Source of the DNA: a bacterium
GTDB taxonomy: Bacteria > Krumholzibacteriota > Krumholzibacteriia > LZORAL124-64-63
Length of the DNA: 64,000 nt
Reading direction: 5' to 3'
NCBI GenBank assembly: GCA_031441465.1
Contig: JANOEP010000066.1
Location: 64,001 to 128,000 of the forward strand
The notes below the pieces were generated by a model, which saw only the letters and a program-made list of their open reading frames with translations, was not told the origin of the DNA and searched no databases. A program made the translations under genes and the position numbers. Shown here piece after piece: positions 1,914-25,327 of the stretch; the stretch's first letter is position 1, and every line of letters starts with the position of its first letter.

Positions 1914-3269
1914 ATGACCACTAACTCCCGAGCCGACCTGCGCGCCGTGACGACAGCGCTCGTCACCCTGCTGCTGTTGTCGTCCGTGCCCGTCGCGCTG
2001 AGCCAGCAGACGGATCCCAGCTGGCAGCCCGTGAACATCGTCTACCTCGGCGACGTCCACGGGAAATTCGAACCCTGTGGCTGACACGGCAACCCGCGCG
2101 GCGGCGTGGCCCGGCGGGCCACCTTCATCGACGAGACCTGGAACCTGGGCCAGCCCGTGCTGATGCTCGACGCCGGCGACCTGTTCGGCGTGCGTTCCCG
2201 CATGGAGCGCGAGCAGACGCGGTTCCTCTGCGAACTGACCCGGGAGTTCGGTTACGACGCCATCGGGCTGGGCGAGTACGACCTCAACTACGGTCTGGCG
2301 TTCCTGCGCGAGATGATCCAGACCTACGAGCTGCCCTTCACCAGCGCCAACGTCCGCGACGCGGCCGGCGGCAAGCTGATCCTGCCCGAGTACCTGCTGG
2401 TCGAGCGCGGTGGCGCGATGTTCGGCATCTGCTCGGTGATGGACCCCGCGCAATCCATCATGACCATGTCCGCGCAGGAGGAGAGCTTCCTCATCGACGA
2501 CCCGGCGACGGTCCTACGCGACCTGCTGCCGCGGATGCGCGCGGCGGGCGCCAAGACCATCGTCCTGCTGGCGCACCTCGGGGATACGGTGTCGGAGGAA
2601 CTCCTCAAACAGGTCCCCGGCATCGACGTCTGCGTCGTGGGCCACACCCAGCAGCCCTACCGGACCGAGCGCGTCGTGGACCAGACCGCGTTCCTGGCGT
2701 CCTCCTTCGAGGGCCGTTACGTCGGTCGGGCCGAGTGCTTCTTCGGCACTGCCGGCCGGCTCGAGGCCATCGACGTGACGATCGGGGATCTCGGCAAGGA
2801 AGTGGCCGACGACCCGGTGATGGTCGAGCGGGTCGAAGCCGTGAAGCAGAAGCTCGAACTGGCGCGGCTCGCCGCGCGCGGCCCCTACCAGCCCGTCCAG
2901 GGCTCGGCCGACGAGAAGTTCCTGACCGAGCGGGAGTGCCGCAAGTGCCACCAGGCGGTGTGGGAGCAGTTGCGCACCACGCCCCATTCCGCGGCCTTGG
3001 GCACGCTGGCCCGCAAGGGCCAGTCCGACAGCCCCGAGTGCCTGGTCTGCCACACCACCGGCTACGTGCACATCGGCGGCTACGACGACCGGCCGCCCGG
3101 CAACACGCTGGGCAACGTCCAGTGCGAGGCCTGCCACGGCTACGGCACCGAGCACAGCCGCGACGGGAAGTGGGCGGCCCGGGCGCGCAGTTCCTGCGTC
3201 ACCTGTCACGACCAGCAGAACAGCCCGAATTTCGACTATGAAACGTACTGGGCCAAGATCAAGCACTGA
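1914..3269 (+). CDS. Secreted UshA/5'-nucleotidase-like metallophosphoesterase-fold domain fused to a tetraheme cytochrome c; probable selenoprotein (TGA 2082-2084 = Sec57, motif C-G-U)
   Basis: ORFs 66..2084 and 2106..3269 share a frame. Read-through gives signal peptide + GDVHGKFEPCG-U-HGNPRGGVARRATF + DAGD + GEYD + GHT + four CxxCH (CRKCH, CLVCH, CEACH, CVTCH). Hairpin follows the TGA. Confidence 0.82.
2094..2109 (+). promoter_or_regulatory. Putative bacterial SECIS hairpin 1
   Basis: CCGCGC-GGCG-GCGTGG: 6-bp stem (one G-U), G-first loop starting 15 nt after the in-frame TGA. Confidence 0.65.
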
Positions 3270-4050
3270 CCCGCGGTGCGCCGCGGCGATCGCCGGTGCC
3301 GTCGCCCTGCTGGCGCTCTTCGCGCCGGCCGGGGCGACGGCCCTCGACGTGTTCACGCTATGGCGTCGCGCCGAAGCCCCGCTGTCGCTGGCCGTCGGGG
3401 ACCGGGTCGACTACAACCGCACCACGCTCGAAGCCGGCCGCCGCACGACGGAACTGATCCGCGTCCAGTGCGTGGCGGACGGGCCCGACGGCTGGCTGCT
3501 GGAGATCCTGCCCCTCGAAGCGACGTCGCGCGGACTCGCGCCGCGTCCGGGGGAGGGCCTGCGCCTGGTCCTGTCGCACGACGTCTCCCGCCGCGAGGGT
3601 GATCTCGCCGGGCTCGTGCGGCGCGTCGTGCAGTGGAACGAGGGACGCAGCCGCGCCCTGGACCCGGGGGAGTGGCGTGAGGACCCGCTGACGGCCTCGC
3701 TGCTGGATGTGGATTTTCAGCCCGACGACGTGACGGCGCAGGGAGCGACCACCCGGGTCGTCGGCGGTGTCGACCTGCTCTGCAGCCAGTTCACGCTGGT
3801 GGCCGCCGACACCGCACGAATCACGCTGCCCCGGGGCGAGATGATCCAGATCCATCGGCGGGAGATCAGCGCCGCGGTGCACCCCGGCGTGCCGTTCCTG
3901 GGCCTCGCCTTCGCGGCGGAGCGCTCCGAGACGAGCGCCCAGGTGATCCCGGCCGGCCGGCGCAGTCCGCCGCCGCCGACCCAGAAGGTCGAGACCATGG
4001 AACTCGTCGGCTACGGTCGCGATGCGGCGCCCGTGCTGGCCGGGAGTTGA
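3238..4050 (+). CDS. Hypothetical secreted protein
   Basis: Signal-peptide-like N-terminus, host codon usage, coupled to upstream gene; start uncertain. Confidence 0.6.
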   Translation: MKRTGPRSSTDPRCAAAIAGAVALLALFAPAGATALDVFTLWRRAEAPLSLAVGDRVDYNRTTLEAGRRTTELIRVQCVADGPDGWLLEILPLEATSRGLAPRPGEGLRLVLSHDVSRREGDLAGLVRRVVQWNEGRSRALDPGEWREDPLTASLLDVDFQPDDVTAQGATTRVVGGVDLLCSQFTLVAADTARITLPRGEMIQIHRREISAAVHPGVPFLGLAFAAERSETSAQVIPAGRRSPPPPTQKVETMELVGYGRDAAPVLAGS

Positions 4051-4080
4051 ACCGAGCGGTGCGATGTGTTATGATGAATC

Positions 4081-4926
4081 ATGTTGTCGCGTGAACTGAC
4101 CGAACTCCAGGAACAGGCCCGCCTCCACCTGTTGCGGCGCAACGCCCCCTGTCAGGCGCAGGAACTCGCACGCCATCTCTTCGGCCCCGAGCGTCACGAG
4201 ACTCCGGAGGCGGTGCTGGTGGTGCGCAAGCTGCTGGAGAGCCTGCCGGACGTCACGCGCTCTCACGACGGCCGCTGGATCGCCCTGGATGCCCCCTTCC
4301 TCGACGTGCCCCTCGGCGCCGCCCGGCTGGTGGCGGTCGATCTGGAAACGACCGGCAGCCTGATCGGGGTGGACTGCATCATCGAGGTCGGGCTCGCGGT
4401 CTGGGAGTCCGGTCAGGTGGTCCAGCAGTTCAGCAGCCTGGTCCACAACACGCGCCGGGTCTCGCCGCGCATCCGCAAGCTCACGGGCATCGAACCCAAC
4501 CAGCTGCACGAGGCGCCCCCCTTCGAGGAGGTGGCGCCGGTGGTGGCGGATCTGCTGCGCGGCGCCCACGCCTTCGTCGCCCACGACGTCCGCTTCGACC
4601 TGAATTTCCTGCGCTGGGAACTCGAGCGCCTGGGCCACGACCTGCCCGAGATGCCGGGCCTCTGCACGCTGCAGCTCGCGCAGCTGCTGTGGCCCAGCCA
4701 CGACGGCTGGCGCCTGCAGGACCTGGCCGGTTCCTTCTCCGTCACCCATCGTCATCCCCACCGAGCCGGGGAGGACGCCCTGGCGACCGCCGGCGTGCTC
4801 GCGCATGCCGTCGCCGACGCCGCCGCCATCGGTGCGGTCACCCTCGCCGACCTCTTCCGCCTGCCCGCGCTCGTCGCGGTCGACGACGGACGCGACGAGC
4901 TGTTCGCCGCCGACGCCGCCGGCTGA
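4081..4926 (+). CDS. DEDDh 3'-5' exonuclease (DNA pol III epsilon/DnaQ-like)
   Basis: VDLETTG, FVAHDVRFD and HRAGEDA motifs. Confidence 0.88.
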   Translation: MLSRELTELQEQARLHLLRRNAPCQAQELARHLFGPERHETPEAVLVVRKLLESLPDVTRSHDGRWIALDAPFLDVPLGAARLVAVDLETTGSLIGVDCIIEVGLAVWESGQVVQQFSSLVHNTRRVSPRIRKLTGIEPNQLHEAPPFEEVAPVVADLLRGAHAFVAHDVRFDLNFLRWELERLGHDLPEMPGLCTLQLAQLLWPSHDGWRLQDLAGSFSVTHRHPHRAGEDALATAGVLAHAVADAAAIGAVTLADLFRLPALVAVDDGRDELFAADAAG

Positions 4927-4966
4927 ACGGCCGGCCCCCCCGCGGAACTCTTCTCGCCCTCGGTGG

Positions 4967-4995
4967 TTGACGCGGACGCCGCGATGTCATAGGAT
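4967..4995 (+). promoter_or_regulatory. Putative sigma70 promoter
   Basis: TTGACG-17 bp-TAGGAT upstream of the small gene at 5071. Confidence 0.5.
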
Positions 4996-5070
4996 GCCCG
5001 ACGAGTTGCGATGAGACGCTGTGGGCCGGTGGTCTGCAGTCTGCGGATCGCCGGGATCAAGGAGGATACC

Positions 5071-5253
5071 GTGCAGCGACACAGGGAAGAAGCTGGCGTG
5101 CTGGTCCGGGACAAATCATTCGTGAAGTTCGAACGCCTGCTGGCCAAGGCCGAGGCCGAGGGCCGCATCGACGGCGACTACAAGTGCCTGGTGTGCGGCA
5201 TGCGGTATTCCCAGAAGGACGAGGCCGAGATCTGCTGCAAGATCCTTCCGTGA
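5071..5253 (+). CDS. Small zinc-finger-like protein (60 aa)
   Basis: AAGGAGG RBS before GTG 5071; YKCLVCG...EICC motif. Confidence 0.6.
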   Translation: MQRHREEAGVLVRDKSFVKFERLLAKAEAEGRIDGDYKCLVCGMRYSQKDEAEICCKILP

Positions 5254-5299
5254 CCTCAGCCTGGCTCCCCGGTCGGGCCGACGGGATCCGGTGCGCATC

Positions 5300-5824
5300 A
5301 TGACCATCCTGCAATACTGTTCCGTCTGCAAGACGGAATACGACATGGCTGTCGTCCCCACCGCCGACGGGGACGACGACGGCGTCGTCTGGCTGCAGTG
5401 CCCGAAATGCAAGGGATTCCTGCCGAAGGTGAGTTCGAGCCTGGCGCTGCGCGGCGGCGGTTCCGCGGCGGCGGCGCCCGCGAGCGCTGAGGGCGCCATC
5501 GACAGTTTCGACGACCACCACGCCGACGACGATCCTGATGACGACCTCGCCGGCGAGTCGCCGCGCGCGGCGTCGGCGCCGGCGGCTGTCGGCGCCCTGA
5601 CCGACGAGGCGGACCCGCTCGCCGACCTGGACCTCGAGACGGCGGTGCCCTACCGCCCGTGGCAGACCTACGCCGAGGGGGATGTGATCCATCACCTGGC
5701 CTGGGACGATTACGGTCTGGTGGTCGGGAAGGAAACGCTGCCGGGCAACCGGCGGGTCGTGATGGTCCGCTTCGCATCGGCCGGCATGGTGCGCTTGATC
5801 GAACAGGACGGCGTGGGGCCGTGA
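5300..5824 (+). CDS. Hypothetical protein: N-terminal zinc ribbon, acidic linker, C-terminal SH3/Tudor-like domain
   Basis: CSVC...CPKC; D-rich linker; 'YAEGDVIHHLAWDDYGLVVGK...VRF'. Confidence 0.65.
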   Translation: MTILQYCSVCKTEYDMAVVPTADGDDDGVVWLQCPKCKGFLPKVSSSLALRGGGSAAAAPASAEGAIDSFDDHHADDDPDDDLAGESPRAASAPAAVGALTDEADPLADLDLETAVPYRPWQTYAEGDVIHHLAWDDYGLVVGKETLPGNRRVVMVRFASAGMVRLIEQDGVGP

Positions 5825-6690
5825 GCGGAATGGTCGGGCGCTGCGCGCTGACTGCCGCCTTCTGCTCGCTGCTCGTGTCGGCCGCCGGGGCCGCGGCGCC
5901 CTGGGACGACGACCTGCCCTGGCCCTTCCTCGACGACGGCCGCGCCTTCCGCGTCGCCGCTTCCCGCTTCGACGATCCGGCCTCGGGCTGGAGCCTCGGC
6001 GTGCTGGAGATCGCGACCGTCCTGCGGCGCGACGCCGGCGGCGTCGCCTACCTGCGATGGCCCCACCTGAACTTCGCGAGCGGCGAACAACCGGTCCTGG
6101 TCCGCTGGCCGGACGTCGCCGGCGAGGGCGCGCCCGCGGGTTGGCCGGGGGAGACGCAGGTTTCCGGCTGGGGGCGGCCGGCGGCGGGTTACCTCGGCCG
6201 GACGAAGGCTCCCCTGCTGGGGCCGCTGGCGTGCGGGGCCGAACTCGCCCTGCCCTTCGCCGCCAATTCCCTGTATCCCTTCGCCGCGCGCAGCATCGCG
6301 CTGCGCCTGCAGGCGCGGCGCGCGTGGCGGCTCACCGAGCGGGTCGCTCTGGACGTCGGCGGCGGCCGCACGTGGAACCTGGGTGCGGCGGGTGATGTGC
6401 TCGCTCCGGCCGCGTTCCCCGAGCGGGGCGAGTGGTCGGCGGGGCTCGCCTGGCGGCCGGCGCCCTCGACGGTGGTCGGGCTGACCGCGGTGCGCGGCGG
6501 CGGCGGGCGCGACAGCCGCCGTTGGCGCCTGGCGCTCGAGTTGCCGCTCCATGGTGAAATCCGCCTGCAGGCCGGCTGGACCCGCGAGTTCGCCGGCGCC
6601 TCCGACCGCTTGTACCGCGACGGCTTCTCGCTGGGACTCGCCCTGCCCGCGCTCGCGACTCCCGACGGGAATGTCGACGGGGCGCCTTGA
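5821..6690 (+). CDS. Hypothetical exported, possibly outer-membrane, protein
   Basis: GTGA overlap with upstream stop; signal peptide; W/aromatic-rich beta-strand pattern. Confidence 0.55.
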   Translation: MSGMVGRCALTAAFCSLLVSAAGAAAPWDDDLPWPFLDDGRAFRVAASRFDDPASGWSLGVLEIATVLRRDAGGVAYLRWPHLNFASGEQPVLVRWPDVAGEGAPAGWPGETQVSGWGRPAAGYLGRTKAPLLGPLACGAELALPFAANSLYPFAARSIALRLQARRAWRLTERVALDVGGGRTWNLGAAGDVLAPAAFPERGEWSAGLAWRPAPSTVVGLTAVRGGGGRDSRRWRLALELPLHGEIRLQAGWTREFAGASDRLYRDGFSLGLALPALATPDGNVDGAP

Positions 6691-6770
6691 CAGCCGCGCG
6701 AACTCGCTGTATCAAATAGCGTGAACATGGATATCAGAATCACGTTACCCCCAGCGGGAGGTCCGAACAC

Positions 6771-7265
6771 GTGTCGATCCGTAAAGAAGTGGCGCCCGAA
6801 GCGGTCAAAGAGAAGGAACGGGGCTTCCAGAAGTTCATCCAGACGCGCGGGCTGAAGACCACCAAGCAGCGCAACACCATCGTCAGCGTCTTCTTCGGCC
6901 TGAAGGGGCACGTCTCGGTCGAAGAACTGCTGCGCGAGGTCAAGGCCGTCAACCCGCGGATCGGCTACGCGACCGTCTACCGCACCCTGCACCTGCTGGT
7001 CGAGAGCAGGTTGGTGGAGGAGCGCCGGTTCGGCGACGGCCTCGCCCGTTACGAGGGCCACTCGGAGGTCGAGCACCACGACCACATGATCTGCCAGAAC
7101 TGCGGCCTGATCTCCGAGTTCTACAACCCGCAGCTCGAGGCCCTGCAGGAGAAGCTCGCGGCCGAGCACGCGTTCACGATCCATCGCCACCGGCTGGAGC
7201 TTTACGGCACCTGTGCGGACTCCGAGTCCTGCAACAACCGCAAACGCGTCCAGGATGGCAACTAG
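6771..7265 (+). CDS. fur: Fur-family transcriptional regulator
   Basis: TKQR, ATVYRTL, HHDHMIC-x2-CG and ELYGTC motifs; TTGACA -35 element at 6687. Confidence 0.93.
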   Translation: MSIRKEVAPEAVKEKERGFQKFIQTRGLKTTKQRNTIVSVFFGLKGHVSVEELLREVKAVNPRIGYATVYRTLHLLVESRLVEERRFGDGLARYEGHSEVEHHDHMICQNCGLISEFYNPQLEALQEKLAAEHAFTIHRHRLELYGTCADSESCNNRKRVQDGN

Positions 7266-7328
7266 CTCCACCGTTCAACCAGGGTGTCCGGCGCGCGACG
7301 CACCACGCCCGAGTCCGGGGATGTCCAG

Positions 7329-8477: not shown

Positions 8478-8479
8478 CC

Positions 8480-8935
8480 GTGTTCGAGACGTTGCGCAAG
8501 CTGATGACGCAGGACGTGACGGCCGTGGCGGGCGACGCCGCCAACGGCGACCACCGCCGCCGGCTGGCCACCGCCGCGCTGTTGCTGGAAGTCGCCTGGG
8601 CCGACGACACCGCCGACGGCGCCGAGAAGGCCTCGATCGCGGGCATCCTCCGCGACCGGTTCGAACTCGACGCGCAGGAGTCGTCCGCGCTCATGGACGC
8701 CGCCGAGGCGCACCGCCACGACGCGACGGACCTCTACAACACCACGGTCCTGCTGCGCGCCGCCCTGTCGCGCCACGAGCTGCGCGACGTGCTGGAAGTG
8801 CTGTGGCGCGTCGTGTATGCCGACGGCGTGCTCGACGCCCACGAGGACGCCCTGCTGCACCGCATCGCCCGCATGCTCGGCCTCGACCACGCCGAACTCA
8901 TCGCGCTGAAGCTCAAGGTGCGCGACGGCAGTTGA
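8480..8935 (+). CDS. TerB-family (tellurite resistance-like) protein
   Basis: LATAALLLEVAWAD ... LWRVVYADGVLDAHE; GGAGG RBS. Confidence 0.85.
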   Translation: MFETLRKLMTQDVTAVAGDAANGDHRRRLATAALLLEVAWADDTADGAEKASIAGILRDRFELDAQESSALMDAAEAHRHDATDLYNTTVLLRAALSRHELRDVLEVLWRVVYADGVLDAHEDALLHRIARMLGLDHAELIALKLKVRDGS

Positions 8936-9003
8936 CGATCCCCTGCGCTTCCTCATGCACCGGACCGAGCGATTCCTGGTATGTGGGAATCGGGCGGTTC
9001 GCT

Positions 9004-10632: not shown

Positions 10633-13600
10633 ATGATGCGCTCTTGGTGCAAGGCTGCCGTCCTGCTGCTGTCACTGCTGGTCCTGGGCTCGGTCGCCGG
10701 CGCGGCGTGGGTTCCGGCGGGCGGCGGTGCCGTCTCGCCGCCGCTGGTCATCGCGACCGGGTCCGGTGACGCGGTCACGCTCCAGATCGAGGTGCCCGGT
10801 TACCATCTCGACGGCGCGCTGGTCGACGGCCGCACCTACGCCAAGCTGGGGCTGCCCGGCGAGGCCTGGCTGATGGAGAAGGGCCTGCCCGAGTTGCCGA
10901 TGATCAGCCGCAGCGTCGCCATCGCCGGCACCGGCGAGCCGTTCCTGCGGGTCGTCGCCAGCGAGTGGACCGAGACCGCCGTCGATCCCGTCCTGCCCTC
11001 CAAGGGGCACCTGACCCGCGACCTCGATCCGGCGGGCATCGCCTTCACCTTCGACGCCCTCTACCGCGACGGTGGGGTCTACCCCCGCGAAGCGGCGAGC
11101 CTCGGCGACCCGTTCATCGTGCGCGACGAGCGCGGCGTCTCCCTGCGCGTGGTGCCCTTCCAGTACGACGCCGGCCGCGGCGTGCTGCGCGTGCTGCGCC
11201 GCATGACGATCGAGGTCCTCACCAAGGGGACCGGCGGCCTGAACGAGCTGCCGAGCGGCGCCACCGCCGCCGTCGACCCCGAGTTCGCCCGCATCTACCG
11301 CGGGATGTTCGCCAACTACGGCGCCGACAAGTACGTCGCCATCGGCACGACCGGCCGGATGCTCGTCGTCACGGCCGACGCCTACCAGGGCGCGCTGGCC
11401 CCGTTCATCGCCTGGAAGCAGCAGAAGGGCATCCCGGTCGAGATGATCACGATGTCCTCGGTGGGCGGGACCGCCACCGGCGTCCAGAGCGCCATCACCA
11501 GCCGCTACGGCTCGGCCGACGGCCTCACCTACGTGGTGCTCGTGGGCGACATCGCCGACGTGCCCACGCGCATCGGCACCTACGAGAGCGCGAAGTCGGA
11601 CCCGACCTACGCCATGGTCGCGGGCTCCGACCGCTACCCCGACCTGTTCGTCTCGCGCATCTCCGCTGCCAACGTCAACGAGGTCCAGCTCCAGGTCGCC
11701 AAGTTCGTACGCTACGAGCGCGATCCCGACACGGGCGCCGCCGCCGAGTGGTACCACAAGGCGACCGGCCTGGCCTCGAACGAGGGCTCGCCGACCGACT
11801 ACGAGCGCTGCAACCTGCTGCGCGCCGACCTGCTCGGCTACACCTTCACCTACGTCGACCAGATCTACCAGCCGACCGGGACCACGGCGATGATCTCGGC
11901 CGCCCTGAACGAGGGCCGCAGCCTGGTCAACTACATCGGCCACGGCAGCGGCACCAGCTGGGGCAACCCGCCGTTCGCCAACAGCAACGTCCTGGCCCTG
12001 ACCAACGGCTGGAAGCAGCCCTGGATCCTGGACGTGAGCTGCTCCAACGGCGACTTCTCCACTTCCGTCTGCTTCGCCGAGGCCTGGCTGCGCGCCGGCT
12101 CGGTCGCCCAGCCCAACGGCGCCGTCGCCACCTACTCGGCCTCGACCCTGGCCTCCTGGGTGCCGCCCTGCGAGATGCAGACCCACGCCGTGGACCTGCT
12201 CGTCGCCGAGCAGGCCAACATCCTGGGCGCCCTGTACTACTACGGCGGCATGAAGGTGCTCGACCTCTATCCCACGGGCGAGGGCCCGAAGCTCATCGAG
12301 CAGTACAACATCTTCGGCGACTGCTCGCTGATGGTGCGCACCGACGCGCCGACGGCGATCGCGCCGACGCACCTGCCCGTCGTCCACCTCGGCACGCCGA
12401 GCTTCCAGGTGAACACCGGCGCTCCGGGCGCCGTGGCCTGCCTCTACCGCGACGGCGTCATCCACGGCACGGCCGTCGCCGACGCGGGCGGCCTGGCGAA
12501 CATCGTGCTGGACGTGCCGGTGACCACCCCCGGCGACATGACCCTCACGGTGACCGGCTACAACCTCACCACCTACCAGGCGACCCTGCTCGCGATCAAC
12601 CCCTCGGTGGTCGTCCTGGATCCCGACACGATCGACGCCAACGTGGCGACGGACGTCACCGTGACGGTGTTCGGTCCCGACGGCACGACGCCGCTGCCCG
12701 GCATCGACGTCCGGGCCGAAGGCCTGGGCTACACCTCGGCCACCGTCGCGACGAATTCGTCGGGCGTGGCCGTGATCGGCGTCACCTACCCGTACGGCCC
12801 CTCGCTGGCCGTCGTCGGGCAGGATCCCGCCGAGACCTACGAGCTGTTCCGCGTGTCCCTGGCGGTCGACGCCCTGGCCCTGACGTCGCCGGACCTGACG
12901 GTGACCACGGACATCGGCATGACCGACCTGTTCCCGCTGAACCTGCCGGGCACCCTGCACGCGACGTCCGGCGAGGCCGGCGCCACGCTGCACGCGGTGC
13001 TGCCGGAAGGCGGCGAGCAGTCGACCGGCGCCTCGAGCCTGACGCTGACCGCGGCCCAGACGGGCGTGGTCACGGGCATCATTGCGCTCAGCGGCTACGA
13101 CCTGTACAGCGAGACGTTCGACGTGATCGAGGCCTACGGCCAGCTGACCGGTCACGTGGACCTGGCCGGCACGCCGGCGGTCGGCGCGGTCGTGCACGGC
13201 CTGGACGACCTCGGCGTCGAAGTGTTCTCGGCGACGACCAACGCGTCGGGCAACTACGACGTGGGTGAGGACGTCCTGGTCGACGACTACACCATCGCGG
13301 TGGACGTCTTCGGCTACCTGCACTTCGAGCAGGCGATGTTCCTGAACTACGGTCCCAACACGTTCGACGTCGCGATGGTCGCGGCCCCGTCGGGCGTGCT
13401 GTCGGGCCTGATCACCGACTCGGCGACGCTCCTGCCCCTGCAGGGGGTCGTGCGCGTGTACCGCAGCGACAACAACCTGCTGTACACCGAGACGACGAGC
13501 GACGCCGCGGGCGCGTTCACGACCGCGGCGCTGCCGTACTTCACGTACACGGTCGCGGTGCGCGCCTCGCACCACGTGCCGGTGAGCGTGGCGGTCGAGA

Positions 13601-15288
13601 TCGACGCGGCGACGGTCGTGAAGGACTTCGCGCTCGAGCCGACCAACGGCGACATCCTGATCGTCGACGACGACGCCGTCGCCCGCTGGGCCCCCGACAA
13701 GTTCGACGAGAAGGGCGAACTGGTCTCCGTCGGCTACGAGATCGGCGAGGAGCGCTCCACCGCCGCGCTGGCGGCGGAGTTGGAGGCGCTCGGCTACGGG
13801 GTGACCGTGCAGGCGGCGGCGGCCACCGTGCCGGCCGACTGGCCGCTCTACGACCTGGTCGTGGCGGCCTGCGGCGCCAACACCAACCCGCTGGGCAGCG
13901 CCGCCCTGCGCAGTGCGCTGATCTCTTACGTGCAGGCCGGCGGCCACCTGCTGCTCGAGGGCGGCGAACTCGTCTATGTGCACAACGCCTCCGGCGCCTT
14001 CGCCTCGACCGTGATGCACACCAACGACTGGAACCACGACACCAGCGGCGCGTTGACCGTCGCCGCGCCCACGCACCACGTGATGTCGGTGCCCAACGTG
14101 ATTTCCGGTCCGATCGCGATCACCTACACCGGGTACGGCGACCAGGACGCCGCGACGCCCCTGGCCGACGCCGTGAAGGTGGGCGCCTGGGCGTCCTACC
14201 CGACCGACGCCGGCGTGATCTGCTACGACCCGAACCCGTCGCCGACGGGTGGCCAGATCGCGTTCTTCACCTTCAAATACGCGGCCCTGAACGCCGCGGG
14301 CCGTGCGCCGCTGCTGGAGAACACCGTGCAGTGGCTGCTGGCGTCGGAGTTCGGCACCGGCAGCGTGAGCGGCCGCGTCGACCTGCAGGGCTCGGCCGAC
14401 GACTCGGGCGTGCTGGTCGAGGGCCTCCCCAGCGGCGGCTCGACGTACACCGACGCGGCGGGCAACTACACCCTGCCGGGCCTGTTCGCGGGCACCACCA
14501 TGATCCGCGCCAGCAAGTTGGCGTGGAGCATCGCCTCGACGTCGGTGACGCTGGCCGAGGGCCAGCAGCTGACGGGCGTGAACCTGACGCTGACGCCGGT
14601 CAGCGAACTCACGCAGTGCCTGCAGCCGGGTCTGTCGATCATCGACTACGGGACCGTGACCAGCCCGATGGCCCTGGCGATGGGAGCGGGCGTGACCGTG
14701 ACCAGCGTCGAGGTGTTCGTGGACATCGTGCACACGTACCAGGGCGACCTGACGGTGGACCTGACGTCGCCGGCGGGCACGACGGTGCGCCTGCACAACC
14801 GCACGGGTAGCGGCACGGACAACATCTACGGATGGTATCCGGACACGCTGACCCCGGCGGGCGACCTGGGCCTGTTCGCGGGCCAGGTTTTGGACGGCAA
14901 CTGGACGCTGACGGTCGCCGATCTGGCCGGCGGCGATGTCGGCACGTTGAGCGAGTGGTGCCTGAAGATCGTGTACGGCGGCGGCTCGACGGGCGCGGGA
15001 GACGCGCCGGCGGTGCTGTCGTTGGCGCAGAACTTCCCGAACCCGTTCAACCCGTCGACGACGATCACGTTCGCGGTGCCGCGCGCGGGCCGGGTGGACC
15101 TGCAGGTCTACGACCTGGCGGGCCGGCAGGTGCGGACGCTGGTCGGCGGCGAGCTGGCGGCCACGACGCACACGGTGGTCTGGGACGGTCGTGACGACAC
15201 GGGCCGCCAAGCGGCTAGCGGCACGTACTACTACCGCCTGCGCAGCGAGGGTCAGGAACTGACCCGCAAGATGACCTTGTTGAAGTAA
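10633..15288 (+). CDS. Gingipain-like C25 cysteine peptidase with propeptide, Ig/carboxypeptidase-regulatory-like domains, proprotein-convertase P domain and FlgD-Ig C-terminal domain
   Basis: Signal peptide; YVVLVGD; NYIGHG (His) and DVSCSNG (Cys); IFGD; HTYQGDL...GNWTL (P domain); QNFPNPFNPSTTI C-terminus. Confidence 0.9.
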   Translation: MMRSWCKAAVLLLSLLVLGSVAGAAWVPAGGGAVSPPLVIATGSGDAVTLQIEVPGYHLDGALVDGRTYAKLGLPGEAWLMEKGLPELPMISRSVAIAGTGEPFLRVVASEWTETAVDPVLPSKGHLTRDLDPAGIAFTFDALYRDGGVYPREAASLGDPFIVRDERGVSLRVVPFQYDAGRGVLRVLRRMTIEVLTKGTGGLNELPSGATAAVDPEFARIYRGMFANYGADKYVAIGTTGRMLVVTADAYQGALAPFIAWKQQKGIPVEMITMSSVGGTATGVQSAITSRYGSADGLTYVVLVGDIADVPTRIGTYESAKSDPTYAMVAGSDRYPDLFVSRISAANVNEVQLQVAKFVRYERDPDTGAAAEWYHKATGLASNEGSPTDYERCNLLRADLLGYTFTYVDQIYQPTGTTAMISAALNEGRSLVNYIGHGSGTSWGNPPFANSNVLALTNGWKQPWILDVSCSNGDFSTSVCFAEAWLRAGSVAQPNGAVATYSASTLASWVPPCEMQTHAVDLLVAEQANILGALYYYGGMKVLDLYPTGEGPKLIEQYNIFGDCSLMVRTDAPTAIAPTHLPVVHLGTPSFQVNTGAPGAVACLYRDGVIHGTAVADAGGLANIVLDVPVTTPGDMTLTVTGYNLTTYQATLLAINPSVVVLDPDTIDANVATDVTVTVFGPDGTTPLPGIDVRAEGLGYTSATVATNSSGVAVIGVTYPYGPSLAVVGQDPAETYELFRVSLAVDALALTSPDLTVTTDIGMTDLFPLNLPGTLHATSGEAGATLHAVLPEGGEQSTGASSLTLTAAQTGVVTGIIALSGYDLYSETFDVIEAYGQLTGHVDLAGTPAVGAVVHGLDDLGVEVFSATTNASGNYDVGEDVLVDDYTIAVDVFGYLHFEQAMFLNYGPNTFDVAMVAAPSGVLSGLITDSATLLPLQGVVRVYRSDNNLLYTETTSDAAGAFTTAALPYFTYTVAVRASHHVPVSVAVEIDAATVVKDFALEPTNGDILIVDDDAVARWAPDKFDEKGELVSVGYEIGEERSTAALAAELEALGYGVTVQAAAATVPADWPLYDLVVAACGANTNPLGSAALRSALISYVQAGGHLLLEGGELVYVHNASGAFASTVMHTNDWNHDTSGALTVAAPTHHVMSVPNVISGPIAITYTGYGDQDAATPLADAVKVGAWASYPTDAGVICYDPNPSPTGGQIAFFTFKYAALNAAGRAPLLENTVQWLLASEFGTGSVSGRVDLQGSADDSGVLVEGLPSGGSTYTDAAGNYTLPGLFAGTTMIRASKLAWSIASTSVTLAEGQQLTGVNLTLTPVSELTQCLQPGLSIIDYGTVTSPMALAMGAGVTVTSVEVFVDIVHTYQGDLTVDLTSPAGTTVRLHNRTGSGTDNIYGWYPDTLTPAGDLGLFAGQVLDGNWTLTVADLAGGDVGTLSEWCLKIVYGGGSTGAGDAPAVLSLAQNFPNPFNPSTTITFAVPRAGRVDLQVYDLAGRQVRTLVGGELAATTHTVVWDGRDDTGRQAASGTYYYRLRSEGQELTRKMTLLK

Positions 15289-19238: not shown

Positions 19239-19259
19239 TCCTCTCCCGAGGGCAAGACC

Positions 19260-19300
19260 ACGCGCCCCCGGCGGCACCGGCCGCCGGGGGCGTGTCTTTT
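19260..19300 (+). terminator. Rho-independent terminator between convergent genes
   Basis: ACGCGCCCCCGGCGGC-ACCG-GCCGCCGGGGGCGTGT followed by CTTTT. Confidence 0.7.
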
Positions 19301-19322
19301 CGCGGCAGGGGGCGTGTGGGGA

Positions 19323-19994
19323 TCAGCGCCCGGCGGCGGCGATCAGGTCCCTCAGGAAGGGCGCGGCCCCGTTCATCACCAGCTGCACCGCGATGACGGT
19401 CACCAGCAGGCCCATCAGCTTCTCCACGATGCGCATGCCCGTGGGACCGAGGCGCCGCAGGACGGTGTCGGCGGTCAGCAGGATCACCCCGGTCAGCAGC
19501 AGGATCAGGGCGGCCGCGGCGCTGACGATCAGCGCGCCGGTCATGCCGGGGGTCTCGGCCCGCAGCACCATGACCGTGGTGATCGAGGCCGGGCCGGCGA
19601 TCATCGGGATCGCCAGCGGGGTCACCGAGGGGTCGTGGTCGGCGTTGTCGCTCGGATCGGGCCGCGGGCCGGCGCCGGTGGCCTGGTCCAGGCCGGTGTG
19701 CCAGCGCCGCGGCCGGCTCTGGAGCATGTCCAGTCCGACGCCGAAGAAGATCACGCCGCCGGCGATCCGGAAGGCGTCCACCGTGATCCCGAAGGTGCTC
19801 AGCACGGCGCTGCCGGCAAAAGTGAAAAGCAGCAGGACCAGCAGGGACACCAGCAGGGCCTTGACCAGGATACGCCGCTTACGGCCGCGGGACAGGCCCG
19901 CGGTCTGGCCGCTGAAGAAGGGGATGCAGCCCAGCGGGTCGATGACCGCGAACAGGGACGACAGCGAGAGCAGGGCGAATCCGGTCAGGTCCAT
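19323..19994 (-). CDS. MarC-family membrane protein
   Basis: LFAVIDPLG, AFRIAGG, TPLAIPMIAGPASIT, KLMGLL. Confidence 0.92.
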   Translation of the reverse strand: MDLTGFALLSLSSLFAVIDPLGCIPFFSGQTAGLSRGRKRRILVKALLVSLLVLLLFTFAGSAVLSTFGITVDAFRIAGGVIFFGVGLDMLQSRPRRWHTGLDQATGAGPRPDPSDNADHDPSVTPLAIPMIAGPASITTVMVLRAETPGMTGALIVSAAAALILLLTGVILLTADTVLRRLGPTGMRIVEKLMGLLVTVIAVQLVMNGAAPFLRDLIAAAGR

Positions 19995-20090
19995 GGGGGC
20001 TCCTCAGGAAGGGCGGCAAGGTCGCGGGCGGCAAAGTCGCGGGCGACGGAGGTCGTGTCAAGCGCCTGACAATCCGGTGACAACTATATC

Positions 20091-20119
20091 TTGTCTGGCC
20101 GCGTCGCGCCTTATATCCT
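20091..20119 (+). promoter_or_regulatory. Putative sigma70 promoter of the mtrAB-like genes
   Basis: TTGTCT-17 bp-TATCCT. Confidence 0.5.
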
Positions 20120-20130
20120 CGGTTCTATGA

Positions 20131-20144
20131 TCAACGTTCGTTGA
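20131..20144. promoter_or_regulatory. Palindromic operator copy 1 (putative TetR site)
   Basis: TCAACG-TT-CGTTGA perfect inverted repeat between promoter and start codon. Confidence 0.65.
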
Positions 20145-20169
20145 CTTCATCCTGCGCGGAGGGATCCCC

Positions 20170-21078
20170 ATGATGCGTCTGCTCCTCCTCATCGCCGGAC
20201 TGCTCACCCTGCTCGCCGTCGTCGCGGCCGCAGGCGGCGGTTTCGCCGAGCGCGTGGGCATGCCGACCGGCGCGGCCTACGTCGGTTCCCAGGCCTGCCT
20301 GGACTGCCACGACGACGCCGGCACCTTCTACCAGCACACCCCCCATTCCGTGGACCTGGCCCTGTCTGCGCCCGTCTCCGGCGCCAGCGCCTGCGAGGCC
20401 TGCCACGGGCCGGGCAGTCTCCACGTGGAGGCCGGCGGCGAAGGTCCCATCTTCGGCAAGGCCGTCCTGTCCGCTCTGGACGCCGAGGACCGCGCCGAGA
20501 TGTGCCTGCAGTGCCACCAGGACAAGCGCGCCACCTGGTCGGGTTCGCCGCACGCCGGCAGCCCGACCGACTGCGCCGCGTGCCACACCGACGTGGTCCA
20601 CGGCGGTGGCGAGGCCCTGGCGCCGTCCGCCTTCCGGATCGCCGGCGAGTTCTGCCTGCAGTGCCACGCGGCCCAGGCTGCCGACTTCCGCCTGCCGTTC
20701 CGCCATCGGGTGCTCGAGGGCGAGGTCTCCTGCCAGGACTGCCACGCCGTCCACGGCGCGGCGCCCGCCGCCGACCCCCTGGGCGACCTGAACGCGGCCT
20801 GTCTGAACTGCCACACGGAAATGGCCGGCCCCTTCCTCTTCGAGCACGAGGCCGTGTCGGCCGAGGACTGCACGGCCTGCCATCGGCCACACGGTTCGAT
20901 CAACGACAAGCTGCTGACCCAGGACGGCAATTCGCTCTGCCTGCAGTGCCACTACGAGCCGGGATATCCGACCATCGGCGACGTGGACCACGGCGGTTTC
21001 CTGAGCAGCGAAGCGCGCTGCTACGACTGCCATCACGAGATCCACGGTTCGAACCTGAACTCCACCTTCCTGGACTAG
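20170..21078 (+). CDS. Decaheme c-type cytochrome, MtrA/DmsE/PioA family
   Basis: Signal peptide; exactly 10 CxxCH; CEACHGPGSLH, GPFLFEH, CHRPHGS, IHGSN signatures. Confidence 0.92.
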   Translation: MMRLLLLIAGLLTLLAVVAAAGGGFAERVGMPTGAAYVGSQACLDCHDDAGTFYQHTPHSVDLALSAPVSGASACEACHGPGSLHVEAGGEGPIFGKAVLSALDAEDRAEMCLQCHQDKRATWSGSPHAGSPTDCAACHTDVVHGGGEALAPSAFRIAGEFCLQCHAAQAADFRLPFRHRVLEGEVSCQDCHAVHGAAPAADPLGDLNAACLNCHTEMAGPFLFEHEAVSAEDCTACHRPHGSINDKLLTQDGNSLCLQCHYEPGYPTIGDVDHGGFLSSEARCYDCHHEIHGSNLNSTFLD

Positions 21079-21088
21079 AAAGGAGCGC

Positions 21089-22987
21089 GTGATGAAGAAC
21101 CTGCACTTGTCGATGCTGACCGCCGCCGCCGTGGCGCTCCTGGCCGCCGGTGCCGCCGTCGCGGGCGAACTGCCGGCCCAGGCCGACCGGATCTGGTCGG
21201 TTCCCGGGGATCATGTGGGTCTGTTCAGCCACGCCACGCTGACGCTCGACGCTCTGGACAGTTACGGGTATTCGGCGAAAGCGGCCGAGGACTGGCAGCT
21301 GACCGAAAAGTTCCGTTTCTCGTCGGTCTTCGCCTGGAACCGCAACTGGGACTCCGGCCGATGGCTGACCCTGCGCGGCGCCGGCGAGGATGGCGGCCGT
21401 CCCGGCGGCGCCGGCTCGCTGGGCCTGTGGGGCGGTTCGCCCGGAAAGTTCCGGACCTCGGTGACCTACCGCAGCTTCGACCATTATTACGATGGGACCA
21501 GCGAGATGCGCTCGGCGGTGTTCGCCGCGCCGCCGTCGCCGCCGGCCCTCACGCCCACCCCGGTCATGAATTGGAACCGCTTCGAGGCGGCCAGCTCCCA
21601 CCGCGTCTGGAACGGGTTCGGTCTCGAGGGGGGCGTCGCCTTCACGCGGCGCGACGGGATCAAGGGCAGCCTGCTGCGCAGCGGCGCCGGCAGCGCCGTG
21701 CCCGCCCAGAAGCACTTCGGCACGCTGGACCGGCGCGTCTGGGCCGGCGGCGACTACGCCTACGGCAAGCTGGCCACGGATTGGGAAGTGTCCTACCAGA
21801 AGAGCGAAGGCGACCGCGCGCTCGGCACGCGGCACCTCACCACCGACGACCGCACCCTGTGGAGCGGGCGGGTCGGCGGCGCCCTCGAGGTGTCGCCGGC
21901 GTTGCGCCTGGTGGGCCAGGCGATCGGCAGCTACCTCGAGAGCAACCCGCACGAGACCCAGGGGCTGGCCGACCGCGACATCACCTCCGACGCCGTGTCG
22001 GGCACGGGACGCGTCGGCGCGTTGTGGACGCCGGCCCGCGGCACGCGGCTGGACCTGTCCGCGGCCGTCCGCAACCAGAACGTCGACGGCCAGGTCGGTC
22101 CCGACAACGCCGTCGTCCACGCCGTCGATCGCGACCGCACCAGCCAGGACTACCACGCGGCGTTGTCGACGACCCGGCTGCCCTCGACCCGATTGCAGAT
22201 GAGCTACCGCTACCGCACCAGCGACCTCGAGGAGACGACCGCGCAGGACGGCGTGCCCGGCAGCGGCACCGAGGGCGACCTCCAGTCCACCGACCAGCAG
22301 CGCACGAGCCAGGAGGCCTCGTTGCGCGCGCGCACGCGTCTCGGGCACAACGTGACGCTGAAGGCCAAGGCGCAGTGGCGGCAGGAGGAGATCGATTCGG
22401 CCGATACCTGGGACACCGCCGGCGGCGACGCCTGGTTCTACTGGATGGGCGACCGCAAGCGGGACAAGCTGGTCTGGGAGGTCTGCCTGAACACACGGCC
22501 GGTCCCGGGCGTCAGCCTCGACCTCGGCCACCAGACGATCGCGCAGACCTTCGAGCGCGAAGATATTCCCGGTGTCGAGACCACCTGGGACGCCGTGCGC
22601 GGCTTCGCCGTGGCCACCTGGGCCGTCGCGCCGCGCCTGACGCTGCTGGGATCGTTCTCGATGGGGCAGGAGCAGTACGGGATCGACGGCGCCCCGGCCG
22701 TCGCGTCCGACGTCAGCCCTCTGGTCTACGACGCCACGACCGTGCGCTACGCGCCCGGCGCGGTGCTGGACCTCGGCCGCGGTTGGAGTTGCGAGGGCCA
22801 CTACGAGGCCGTCCGTACCACCGACTCGGTCGAGAACGACCTGGACCGCTGGTCGGCCCGCACCAGCTGGCGCTTCGCGGAGAAGCTGACCATGACCGCG
22901 AGTTACCGTCGCTGCGAGTTCGACGAGAACCGCTGGGACGATTACATCTTCGACCTGTACTCGCTGTCGGTGGGCGGCGTTTTCTAG
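21089..22987 (+). CDS. Outer-membrane beta-barrel partner of the decaheme (MtrB/PioB-like)
   Basis: Directly follows MtrA-type gene; signal peptide; beta-strand pattern; C-terminal Phe. Confidence 0.78.
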   Translation: MMKNLHLSMLTAAAVALLAAGAAVAGELPAQADRIWSVPGDHVGLFSHATLTLDALDSYGYSAKAAEDWQLTEKFRFSSVFAWNRNWDSGRWLTLRGAGEDGGRPGGAGSLGLWGGSPGKFRTSVTYRSFDHYYDGTSEMRSAVFAAPPSPPALTPTPVMNWNRFEAASSHRVWNGFGLEGGVAFTRRDGIKGSLLRSGAGSAVPAQKHFGTLDRRVWAGGDYAYGKLATDWEVSYQKSEGDRALGTRHLTTDDRTLWSGRVGGALEVSPALRLVGQAIGSYLESNPHETQGLADRDITSDAVSGTGRVGALWTPARGTRLDLSAAVRNQNVDGQVGPDNAVVHAVDRDRTSQDYHAALSTTRLPSTRLQMSYRYRTSDLEETTAQDGVPGSGTEGDLQSTDQQRTSQEASLRARTRLGHNVTLKAKAQWRQEEIDSADTWDTAGGDAWFYWMGDRKRDKLVWEVCLNTRPVPGVSLDLGHQTIAQTFEREDIPGVETTWDAVRGFAVATWAVAPRLTLLGSFSMGQEQYGIDGAPAVASDVSPLVYDATTVRYAPGAVLDLGRGWSCEGHYEAVRTTDSVENDLDRWSARTSWRFAEKLTMTASYRRCEFDENRWDDYIFDLYSLSVGGVF

Positions 22988-23015
22988 ACGCCAACCCTCG
23001 GAGACGGCTGTTCCG

Positions 23016-23047
23016 GGAACCCCGCAAAGGCGGGGTTCCTTTTTTTT
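23016..23047 (+). terminator. Rho-independent terminator
   Basis: GGAACCCCGC-AAAG-GCGGGGTTCC + 8 T. Confidence 0.92.
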
Positions 23048-23079
23048 GGCCGCCACCGCGGGGACCCCGCCCGAGCGGG

Positions 23080-23093
23080 TGAACGATCGTTCT
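23080..23093. promoter_or_regulatory. Palindromic operator copy 2
   Basis: TGAACG-AT-CGTTCT (core GAACGATCGTTC is a perfect palindrome). Confidence 0.55.
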
Positions 23094-23234
23094 CGTATCT
23101 GCAAGCTATCGCTAATGTTATAACACCTAGTAAGGACATATGAGTTATCTTATTGCATGGCAATCAGTTTCATGGGTTATTTTCATAACATTCTGGATTG
23201 ACGGGCCGAATTGGATGGGTAGGTTGGAGCAGAG

Positions 23235-23248
23235 TCAACGTTCGCTCA
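23235..23248. promoter_or_regulatory. Palindromic operator copy 3
   Basis: TCAACG-TT-CGCTCA downstream of TTGACG-16-TAGGTT (23198-23225) and just upstream of tetR. Confidence 0.6.
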
Positions 23249-23267
23249 CCTCGTTCGAGGGAACGCC

Positions 23268-23903
23268 ATGGCCTCCGAAACCCGACACGCCAACCGCCGG
23301 GGCGAGATCCTCGACCACGCGTCGCGGCTCTTCTCGGCTCACGGCTACGACGGCACCGCCATCCGGCTGATCGCCCGCGCCAGCGGCGTGACCGAGGCCG
23401 CCATCTACCGTCACTTCGACGGCAAGGCCCAGCTCTACGACGAGGTCATCCGCGCCAAGGCGCGCGAGCACGACATCGCGGGCGACCTCGCGACCAGTCG
23501 GGGCCGCGGCAGCGTCGAGGACGTCCTGCGCGTGGTGGCCAACCACGTCCTGTCCCTGGCGGCGCGCGATCCCGAAATCGTGCGGCTGATGTCCAACAGC
23601 AGCCTCGAGAACGTCCAGGGCCGCGCGACGCTCTTCCGCGAAGTGCGCAGCCCCTACATCGACTTCCTGATCGAGGAGATCTCGCGGCGCATGGCGACGG
23701 GGGAGGTCCGCCGGATCGACCCCGTCATCACCAGCCGTTGCTTCGTGGGCATGGTCATGGACTGTGCCCTCAACGCCGGCATGTGGAGCCGGTTCGCGGG
23801 CACGGAGGTCGACGCGCAGACCGTGGTCTGCAACAACGTGCCGATCTTCGCCCGCGGCCTCACCAACGGCGGCGCCGGGTCGCCGTCCAACGACGGAGAG
23901 TGA
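23268..23903 (+). CDS. TetR/AcrR-family transcriptional regulator (copy 1)
   Basis: ILDHASRLF..GYDGT.IR.IA...GVTEAAIYRHF..K HTH. Confidence 0.93.
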   Translation: MASETRHANRRGEILDHASRLFSAHGYDGTAIRLIARASGVTEAAIYRHFDGKAQLYDEVIRAKAREHDIAGDLATSRGRGSVEDVLRVVANHVLSLAARDPEIVRLMSNSSLENVQGRATLFREVRSPYIDFLIEEISRRMATGEVRRIDPVITSRCFVGMVMDCALNAGMWSRFAGTEVDAQTVVCNNVPIFARGLTNGGAGSPSNDGE

Positions 23904-23905
23904 CC

Positions 23906-25327
23906 ATGCACAAGCACGCAGCGGTCGCGGTCCTCGCGTTCCTGGTCCTCGGCAGCCTGTGGGGGTGCGAGAACGACACCTCCAACGGCACCGGGGATCC
24001 GAACGTCGTGCTGACCGACAAGACCTGCCTCGGCTGCCACAGCAGCCGGGACATGCTCATCGCCAACCTGGGCGAGGAGGCGACATCCAAGGCCGAGCCC
24101 ACCGACAAGGCCGACGGCTGAGGCGGCTCCGTACCCGCGCTGGAGGCGTGGGAAAAGGTCATCATCACCGGCACCAACGGGCAGCGGTTCCTCGACAGCG
24201 TGCACGGTCAGCGCTCCTGCCAGAGCTGCCACGGCGGCCCGGCCGACCGCACCTTCGAGACGATGGCGGAGGCGCACACCGGCATGGTCGCCGATCCCAG
24301 CGCGCACGGCGCCTGCGACGGCTGCCACGCCGAGGAGGCGGCGGCCACCGCGAACAGCCTGCACTCGAACCAGTGGGGCTACATCGCGATCATCGAGCAG
24401 CGCGGGCGCTGCACTTTCGAAGGCTCCGGCTTCGAAACCTACTTCGACCAGAAGTGCGGCAGCTGCCACACGACCTGCGGGCAGTGCCACGTCAGCCGGC
24501 CCAACAGCGTGGGCGGCGGCTTCCCGCTGATCGGCACCTACTACTCGCACCGCTTCCGGGCGTCGCCGGACATGACCGAGCAGTGCACGGCCTGCCACGG
24601 TTCGCGCGTGGGCAACGACTTCCTGGGGCAGAGCGAGGGCAACGTGCCCGACGTCCACCGCCAGCCCTACGGCTGGCAGTGCAAGGACTGCCACACCAAG
24701 GAGGAGATCCACGGCGACGATCAGTACGAGGGCGACCATTACGAGCACCGCTACGAGGTCAAGACGATGCCCCGTTGCGAGGACTGCCACGGCGAAGGCC
24801 AGGACGACGGCTGGGACAACGCCTACCACGCCATGCACGTGGGCAACGACGGCCTGAACCTGCAGTGCCAGGTCTGCCACTCGCAGCCCTACAAGAACTG
24901 CACGAACTGCCACAACCTGCTCACGGGCGGGGACAAGTCGGACAAGTTCGACATCGATCCCAGCCGCCTGCAGCTCAAGATCGGCCGCAACCTGAATCCC
25001 AACCGCGATGAGTACGACTACGTCGTCGTGCGTCACGCGCCGACCGATCCCGGCACCTTCGCCGAGTGGGGCCTGGATCTGCCCGGTTACCTGGACGCGC
25101 CGACCTGGCTCTACGCCTCCCCGCACAACATCGTGCGGCGCACGGCGCAGACGACGGTCGGGGAGGGGCAGACCTGCAGCACGGCCTGCCACGAGTCGCC
25201 CGACGGGCTCGACGGCTTCCTGCTGCGCGAGTCCGACCTGTACGCCGAAGACGGGGTGACCCGCCTGCCCGACTACGAAGCGAACCTGGGCGTGGTGATC
25301 CCGCCGACGTTCCCCGACTCGAAGTGA
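23906..25327 (+). CDS. Multiheme cytochrome c lipoprotein (10 CxxCH + 1 CxxxCH); probable selenoprotein (TGA 24119-24121 = Sec72)
   Basis: Lipobox LWGC and first heme (CLGCH) lie upstream of the TGA; frame continues GGSVPALEAWEKV into ORF 24200..25327, which has no export signal of its own; SECIS-like hairpin follows the TGA. Confidence 0.85.
24134..24152 (+). promoter_or_regulatory. Putative bacterial SECIS hairpin 2
   Basis: CCCGCGC-TGGAG-GCGTGGG: 7-bp stem starting 12 nt after the TGA, G-containing loop. Confidence 0.72.

Follow-up and report, generated by a model that had tools for sequence, protein, structure and literature searches.

Two genes in a 64,000-nucleotide stretch of bacterial DNA (hereafter the window: positions 64,001 to 128,000 of the forward strand of contig JANOEP010000066.1, assembly GCA_031441465.1, from a member of the Krumholzibacteriota) each contain an in-frame TGA codon that most probably encodes selenocysteine (Sec). 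Gene 1 (1914..3269, forward strand) encodes an exported metallophosphoesterase with a cytochrome domain and gene 2 (23906..25327, forward strand) a probable lipoprotein multihaem cytochrome. The reading favored here, to which a probability of about 0.88 is assigned, is that each TGA is a Sec codon read by the standard bacterial route with an ordinary Sec insertion sequence (SECIS) hairpin of its own, and that the SECIS elements of this genome share a generic consensus rather than a particular string of 15 letters. It draws on the conservation of the codons, on covariation in the hairpins, and on the Sec machinery of the genome; SelB would bind each hairpin and Sec would be inserted at each site. 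A sequence-only reading of the window had claimed that both TGAs are recoded and that the same hairpin, a shared and possibly lineage-specific SECIS, follows both of them.

The claim of recoding is borne out by TGA conservation, by covarying hairpins at SECIS distance, and by a full set of Sec machinery. The source genome, a 3.49 Mb draft of 70% GC in 74 contigs, contains a tRNA-Sec with anticodon TCA together with selB (359 bits, cut-off 242), selA (437 bits, cut-off 268), and selD (348 bits, cut-off 125), the last of which has an in-frame TGA itself. The Sec codon of gene 1 (2082..2084, forward strand) is residue 57, within a PCGU motif (EPCGUHG, residues 53-59), and that of gene 2 (24119..24121, forward strand) is residue 72, within DGUGG. 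For gene 1, 67 homologous loci were sampled, consisting of the 30 best rows and 37 picked for diversity, with rows lacking a stop included; TGA occupies the site in 63, and the other four are paralogues with TGC, encoding cysteine (Cys). PCGU is retained in 63 of the 67, that is, in the Sec forms. At the gene-2 site, TGA was found in 51 of 53 loci sampled within the order (the others have one TGG and one CAA) and in 78 of 80 loci in a scan of named genomes across several phyla. Judged from these sequence comparisons, both in-frame TGAs appear to be genuine Sec codons.

By the route proposed, tRNA-Sec would be charged via SelA and SelD and delivered by SelB, which would bind, within the coding sequence and shortly downstream of the UGA, a GC-rich hairpin of small size whose apical loop begins with G. 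For gene 2, the SelB hairpin would be the one already picked out by the sequence-only reading, at 24134-24152; for gene 1, it would be a hairpin at 2106-2122 that takes the 3′ arm of the originally proposed hairpin into its own 5′ arm. The consensus for the bacterial SECIS (bSECIS), as quoted in a 2026 review, comprises an apical loop of 3-9 nucleotides (nt), an upper stem of 4-16 base pairs (bp), and a G in the first two loop positions, mostly as G[G|U], with a spacing of 16-37 nt from the UGA and a minimum free energy (MFE) of at most -7.5 kcal/mol (PMC13188914).

The SECIS of gene 2 (24134..24152, forward strand; CCCGCGCU-GGA-GGCGUGGG) is the hairpin of the sequence-only reading with one further pair at each end. 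It is both the MFE and the centroid structure, with an energy of -13.6 kcal/mol, pair probabilities of 0.81-0.998, an 8-bp stem, and a 3-nt GGA loop placed 20 nt past the UGA. The hairpin was compared among 50 Sec-bearing sequences, 46 of them distinct, with 500 shuffles and with structures slid by 1-3 columns as controls. In this comparison 97.3% of cells pair, while none of the 500 shuffles reaches the observed covariation and the slid structures pair in at most 49%; RNAalifold recovers the helix unaided. Pair 20-30 is C-G in 25 distinct sequences and A-U in 21, and pair 19-31 is G-U in 37 and A-U in 5. The switch from C-G to A-U couples an Ala-to-Glu change (GCG to GAG) with a synonymous change (GCG to GCU) eight bases downstream, and protein constraint therefore cannot explain the hairpin; both states occur within a single genus (g28). 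Loops of the family within the order are GGA in 49 cases and GUU in two (n=51). In the two non-Sec homologues, with TGG and CAA at the site, 6/8 and 5/8 positions pair. Members from other phyla (loci L227-L254) have a hairpin about 12-34 nt past the TGA that is rebuilt 2 nt upstream with a different loop, NCCUCC-G[U/G]U-GGAGGN, and its outer pairs covary as well (GCCUCC/GGAGGC, ACCUCC/GGAGGU, CCCUCC/GGAGGG, and GGCUCC/GGAGCC). The gene-2 hairpin first seen in the sequence alone thus holds up as a true SECIS, backed by compensatory changes that go beyond protein constraint.

In gene 1, the conserved SECIS is, on the evidence of homologue comparison, not the hairpin originally proposed; it is the overlapping hairpin GUGGCCC-GGC-GGGCCAC (2106..2122, forward strand), which lies under the V-A-R-R-A-T codons. 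Among 63 Sec-bearing homologues (59 distinct), again with 500 shuffles and slid structures as controls, 91.5% of cells pair and 17 cells have changes on both sides; no shuffle matches this (0/500), and slid structures pair in at most 50% of cells. Pair 27-39 occurs as GC (44), GU (6), AU (4), UG (3), and CG (1), and pair 25-41 as GC (22), CG (7), and UA (2). This hairpin too is recovered by RNAalifold unaided. It has an energy of -13.3 kcal/mol and a pair probability of about 0.51, with a 7-bp stem and a 3-nt loop 28 nt past the UGA. Family loops are GGA in 44, GGC in 17, and GAC in two of the 63 sequences. Residues of the GGL[AP]R[RM][AV]T kind persist in the four Cys paralogues with other codons, and only 2-5 of 7 positions pair in them.

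The two window SECIS, with their spacings of 20 and 28 nt, agree with the bSECIS in loop and stem size, loop G, spacing, and energy. They resemble the published element (PMC13188914; also PMC1088965) as stem-loops in coding sequence past the UGA with a small loop starting G[G/U], and differ from it in nothing essential. Both also show compensatory changes in Sec homologues and relaxed pairing in the Cys, W, or Q homologues, a feature that the hairpin first proposed for gene 1 fails to show.

That the two sites share an unusual run of letters is plain from the window, where letters and positions are exactly as first described. At site 1 (forward strand), the TGA at 2082-2084 is followed by CACGGCA (7 nt), ACCCGCGC at 2092-2099, GGCG, and GCGTGG at 2104-2109; at site 2 (forward strand), the TGA at 24119-24121 is followed by GGCGGCTCCGT (11 nt), ACCCGCGC at 24133-24140, TGGAG, and GCGTGG at 24146-24151. 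The identity of the arms is real, and its extent is slightly larger than was stated, 8+7 letters, since the G before GCGTGG is also common to both. The observation that the letters are translated in different frames also stands, giving N-P-R-G-G-V-A in gene 1 and V-P-A-L-E-A-W in gene 2. On both strands of the whole genome, ACCCGCGC-N3-4-GGCGTGG occurs twice, at the two window sites. There are 18 copies of the relaxed motif CCGCGC-N4-5-GCGTGG. Four lie 5-15 nt past a TGA, and the two of these that are not the window sites are out of frame. In 30000 windows of 45 nt sampled from high-confidence coding sequence of the genome, 37% contained some 6-bp hairpin, and this particular hairpin was present in 12 of the 30000. 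Two such windows drawn at random have a probability of about 2e-4 of sharing a hairpin in which both 6-nt arms are identical. The 15-letter identity is therefore both real and uncommon.

A simple origin for the gene-1 copy may lie in codon usage. AAC-CCG-CGC-GGC-GGC-GUG is the commonest codon choice for N-P-R-G-G-V in high-GC genomes, and the codons for R/P-R-G-G (CGN/CCN CGN GGN GGN) are inherently self-complementary. The hairpin proposed for gene 1 is thus probably a genus-specific by-product of the commonest GC-rich N-P-R-G-G-V codons, and the shared 15 letters would be a coincidence in gene 1, with the rest of the match to gene 2 put down to chance.

The competing view is that of the sequence-only reading, namely that in both genes SelB binds the identical CCGCGC-loop-GCGUGG as the SECIS, and that this is a lineage-specific sequence motif. 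It is consistent with the exact 8+7-letter identity at these two sites only in the genome, with the chance of about 2e-4 per window pair for the shared 6+6 hairpin, and with the G-first loop (GGCG) and energy of -10.5 kcal/mol of the gene-1 version. In gene 1, however, this hairpin (CCGCGC-GGCG-GCGUGG, 2094..2109, forward strand) proved, by folding and homologue comparison, to be foldable on paper but not the conserved element. Its pairs have probabilities of at most 0.013 and are missing from both the MFE and the centroid folds. Across the 59 distinct homologues, 51.7% of its cells pair, a value equaled or bettered by 456 of 500 shuffles and surpassed by slid structures, which reach up to 64%. 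All six pairs are present in only 6 of 63 sequences, every one of them from the window's own genus, and the seventh member of that genus (L051) loses the G-U pair with no compensating change. With its loop 15 nt past the UGA, the hairpin falls outside the consensus spacing of 16-37 nt. The 3′ arm, GCGUGG, is at the same time the start of the 5′ arm of the better-conserved hairpin at 2106-2122, which takes four of its bases, GUGG, and therefore the two genes use the shared string differently. The sequence-only reading had itself named, as a finding that would refute it, the lack of the motif in known selenoprotein genes of the genome; selD and the genes for the SelW-like, Omp28-related, and AhpC/TSA proteins described below all lack it. 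As a statement about structure, then, the claim that the same hairpin follows both TGAs fails, the gene-1 version being absent from the predicted folds and unconserved beyond the genus, and a common lineage-specific SECIS sequence is very unlikely.

Several observations weigh against the reading of two ordinary and separate SECIS and should be set beside it. An 8+7-letter identity is hard to obtain by chance (for the 6+6 core alone, about 2e-4 per random pair of windows), and codon usage is the sole positive explanation offered for it. The two 60-nt regions are no more stable than their shuffles (z +1.15 and -0.01), and such z-scores are uninformative here. The homologues compared are kin and not independent of one another, so that the shuffle controls overstate significance. 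Two Sec-bearing gene-1 homologues of genus g3 (L055 and L058: 2628-2682) are without the canonical GGCCC-GGA-GGGCC hairpin. These two, the GAC-loop outliers, have another hairpin, CGGGGC-GGUCU-GYCCCG, in columns 16-32, about 9 nt upstream. From these sequences the SECIS appears to have been replaced in genus g3, and its position would seem able to shift within the gene-1 family. Finally, the 2094-2109 hairpin is intact in six of the seven genomes of the window's genus, where variation is too small to decide against an auxiliary role. It might, in this genus only, act as a second SECIS, an alternative SelB binder that arose with an Arg-to-Pro change; GG opens its loop, as it does the loops of the genome's other SECIS, and a small probability is retained for such a role because the position of the SECIS can move in the gene-1 family. 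Against it, the sole varying member of the genus breaks a pair without compensation, the canonical 2106-2122 hairpin shows no defect in the genus and dominates thermodynamically, and the sequence would be no other than the default NPRGGV codons at 70% GC.

A last point against the favored reading concerns gene 2 and bears on whether one or both TGAs are Sec codons at all, or instead mark an error in sequencing, the break of a pseudogene, or a stop codon read through as Trp or some other residue. In the database alignment of gene 2 (seven sequences, six of which are full-length database proteins), the homologues have W, Q, W, P, P, and one gap at the Sec site; Cys is never found there, which is unusual for a catalytic Sec, and TGG is one base from TGA. 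The flanking DG..GG also decays in non-Sec homologues of gene 2 (P0014, P0062, P0054, P0082, and P0083). Set against a non-Sec reading are the presence of TGA, with frames open on both sides, in 51/53 and 63/67 sampled loci and in 78/80 loci from several phyla, the covarying hairpins at SECIS distance in both genes, the full Sec machinery of the genome, and the placement of gene 1 with a curated (seleno)protein family that has a PCGU motif. Such a reading is extremely improbable.

Beyond the window, in-frame TGAs of the genome were screened by periodicity of GC content at third codon positions on both sides under three settings, giving 74, 138, and 549 candidates, which were then subjected to family scans. 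The screen was leaky: the middle setting dropped gene 1, and most candidates were true stops followed by the next gene. Two candidate Sec sites were set aside, C30:1010 as a stop with a terminator and C13:68245 as out of frame. The genome has at least six selenoprotein genes, gene 1, gene 2, and four more from the screen, and this number is a minimum because the TGA filters are leaky. The selD gene (C25:35253-36311, screen position C25:35304) has the hairpin GGCCC-GGA-GGGCC 17 nt past the UGA. A SelW-like protein of the SelT/W/H (Rdx) group (C11:91116-91310, screen position C11:91310) has CGCCGCC-GGUCU-GGCGGCG 21 nt past the UGA. An Omp28-related UxxC selenoprotein with FG-GAP/ASPIC repeats (C64:50135-52729, screen position C64:50267; weak family match of 32.5 bits) has the candidate hairpin UUCCGC-GGUC-GCGGGA, and an AhpC/TSA redoxin with UxxC (C64:59314-60132, screen position C64:59934) has a candidate hairpin 14 nt past the UGA. 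The hairpins of these last two genes come from a simple stem search, are missing from the MFE folds, and are unconfirmed. Both proteins have a FlgD_ig domain and a sorting tail of the type IX secretion kind. Another protein with a FlgD_ig tail of this kind lies within the window at 10633-15288, a 1551-residue gingipain-like Peptidase_C25 protein with a proprotein-convertase P domain and carboxypeptidase-regulatory domains.

Homologues of selD were found in 89 of the 91 genomes of the order, with exactly one TGA in 85 of 92 match rows. Its hairpin, compared in 30 sequences, pairs in 86.9% of cells and shows 14 double changes, including GGCCC/GGGCC to AGUCC/GGACU, which none of 500 shuffles equals. 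The core GGCCC-GGN-GGGCC is common to selD, where the loop is GGN, and gene 1. The exact form of this core, GGCCCGGNGGGCC, was tried as a finder of Sec sites: it occurs eight times in the genome, five of them within 30 nt past a TGA, with in-frame Sec codons only in selD and gene 1. The pattern taken from the two window sites was likewise useless for finding selenoproteins, its 18 genome matches including no new in-frame TGA site.

Across the six genes, five candidate hairpins fall within the consensus spacing, at 17-28 nt, with the AhpC/TSA candidate at 14 nt, and half of the six loops are GGN triloops with C-G or U-G(A) as the closing pair. A shared SECIS is therefore found in the sense of common features, a GC-rich stem with a GGN or GGUC(U) loop, and not in the sense of a common 15-letter sequence. 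Five of the six candidate hairpins fit the general bacterial consensus, and there is therefore nothing lineage-specific about them. When five selenoprotein loci were scanned with Rfam, no SECIS family came up at E<=10; Rfam apparently does not model such short hairpins in coding regions.

The product of gene 1, as read from its translation and its NCBIfam and Pfam matches, is an exported UshA-like metallophosphoesterase with a C-terminal four-haem cytochrome domain. Its top match by a wide margin is the NCBIfam family NF041198, UshA_like_PCGU (248.6 bits, E 1.1e-73), and it has the Pfam domains Metallophos and Cytochrome_C554 and four CxxCH motifs. Like this UshA-like (seleno)protein family, it has PCGU, a metallophosphoesterase N-terminal domain, and a cytochrome-like C-terminus (profile positions 356-519), whereas its whole-protein score is below the curated cut-off of 275; it is read as a divergent member or close relative of the family. 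The family is listed as a selenoprotein family with a CxU motif (PMC13188914). Homologues of gene 1 are present in 89 of the 91 genomes of the order.

Gene 2 encodes 473 residues with ten CxxCH motifs and one CxxxCH. Its Pfam matches are Cytochrome_C7 and a weak MtrC/MtrF domain, and it matches no NCBIfam family at E<=0.01. Homologues are present in 56 of the 91 genomes of the order; among the 80 loci of the named-genome scan, judged by record titles, close relatives fall in Candidatus Krumholzibacteriota and distant members in Latescibacterota, KSB1, Ignavibacteria, Calditrichaceae, and others. By sequence, gene 2 gave no match among solved-structure chains at E<=1. An AlphaFold model built with 66 sequences has a mean predicted local distance difference test score (pLDDT) of 72 and a predicted template-modeling score of 0.73, with the Sec loop (63-75) at a pLDDT below 50. 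The best VIA-align fold match of this model is the octahaem tetrathionate reductase (OTR) of Shewanella (PDB 1sp3), with Z 7.2 and a root-mean-square deviation of 4.3 Å over 240 residues (model residues 99-473), followed by a match of Z 3.2; Foldseek found nothing at E<=0.001 for the model, with OTR reached at E 1.3, which leaves VIA-align as the one search that returned a usable match. The likeness to OTR is one of fold only, and gene 2 differs from the OTR family TIGR04315 in scoring 13.3 bits against a cut-off of 375. The genome has a separate family-level homologue of the Shewanella OTR (C36:32474-33751; TIGR04315, 327 bits, cut-off 375), which has no in-frame stop.

A close parallel among described selenoproteins is MccSep (ExtKL) of Geobacter sulfurreducens, a pentahaem selenoprotein polysulfide reductase of the ext cluster with five conserved haem-binding motifs and with Sec in a C-terminal domain next to a His/Cys-ligated haem (PMC13510729). 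Gene 2 resembles MccSep in three respects: its product is a c-type cytochrome with many haems whose single Sec lies in a D-G-U loop, a rhodanese-domain protein is encoded in its cluster, and annotation has split or truncated it at the UGA. It differs in having 10 CxxCH and one CxxxCH motifs rather than five haems, and in the location of Sec, which is at residue 72 of 473 and near the N-terminus, whereas U325 of MccSep is in a C-terminal immunoglobulin-like domain. The ExtKL/MccSep profile NF040886 has no match at the gene-2 locus at E<=1; its only match in the window is weak (E 0.15) and falls on the neighboring decahaem gene.

That neighbor (20170..21078, forward strand) is a DmsE-family periplasmic decahaem cytochrome (TIGR03508, 206.4 bits, cut-off 192.2; Pfam Paired_CXXCH_1). 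It is followed by a 632-residue protein of no family (21089-22987, from the neighbor scan) and a TetR regulator (23268-23903). Downstream of gene 2 lies a protein with four rhodanese domains (25428..27308, forward strand; Pfam Rhodanese in four stretches, E 1e-48, and NCBIfam rhodanese-type matches). The 632-residue protein may be an outer-membrane barrel; its match to NF041027 (the GSU2204 barrel), at just 8.3 bits and E 0.4, was rejected as evidence. By analogy, the cluster at 20170-27308 resembles a porin-cytochrome conduit with a sulfur carrier, like extHIJKL of Geobacter.

Most database entries of the gene-2 family begin past the UGA and span 72-84% of the query. Several entries (JGI) are named 'thiosulfate/3-mercaptopyruvate sulfurtransferase', though only cytochrome domains are recorded in them. 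No published description of the family was found in a literature search that had supplements outside its scope. The main texts of BSepDB and deep-Sep have neither 'cytochrome' nor 'heme', their supplements, which could list the family, being outside the search. The review's table of selenoprotein families lists ExtKL, GSU2204, the OTR family, and UshA-like families (PMC13188914). The gene-2 family thus looks uncatalogued. At about even odds, gene 2 represents an uncatalogued and widespread selenoprotein family of lipoprotein cytochromes that are OTR-like, have ten to twelve haems, and contain an N-terminal loop of [D/E]-G-U-G-G. They are encoded beside multi-rhodanese and DmsE-type decahaem proteins in a probable outer-membrane electron conduit and would occur in Krumholzibacteriota and other phyla with the SECIS rebuilt in different registers, while W, Q, or P, and not Cys, takes the place of Sec in non-Sec relatives. 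If the analogy with MccSep holds, such a protein would act as a reductase of a sulfur or selenium compound.

In a genome of 70% GC, an exact hairpin shared after two recoded stops seemed strong evidence, and yet one of the two copies is probably a by-product of codon usage, which calls for caution with such matches. The real signals were found only through covariation across relatives and through contrast with Cys paralogues, and the four further selenoprotein genes would have escaped a fixed-sequence pattern. The analysis yielded two well-supported SECIS with clean compensatory changes and six or more selenoprotein genes from a candidate phylum that has received little study. A further gain is added support for a family of multihaem cytochrome selenoproteins that are cut short at the UGA in public databases, and this family may broaden the selenium-dependent sulfur respiration recently demonstrated for MccSep.

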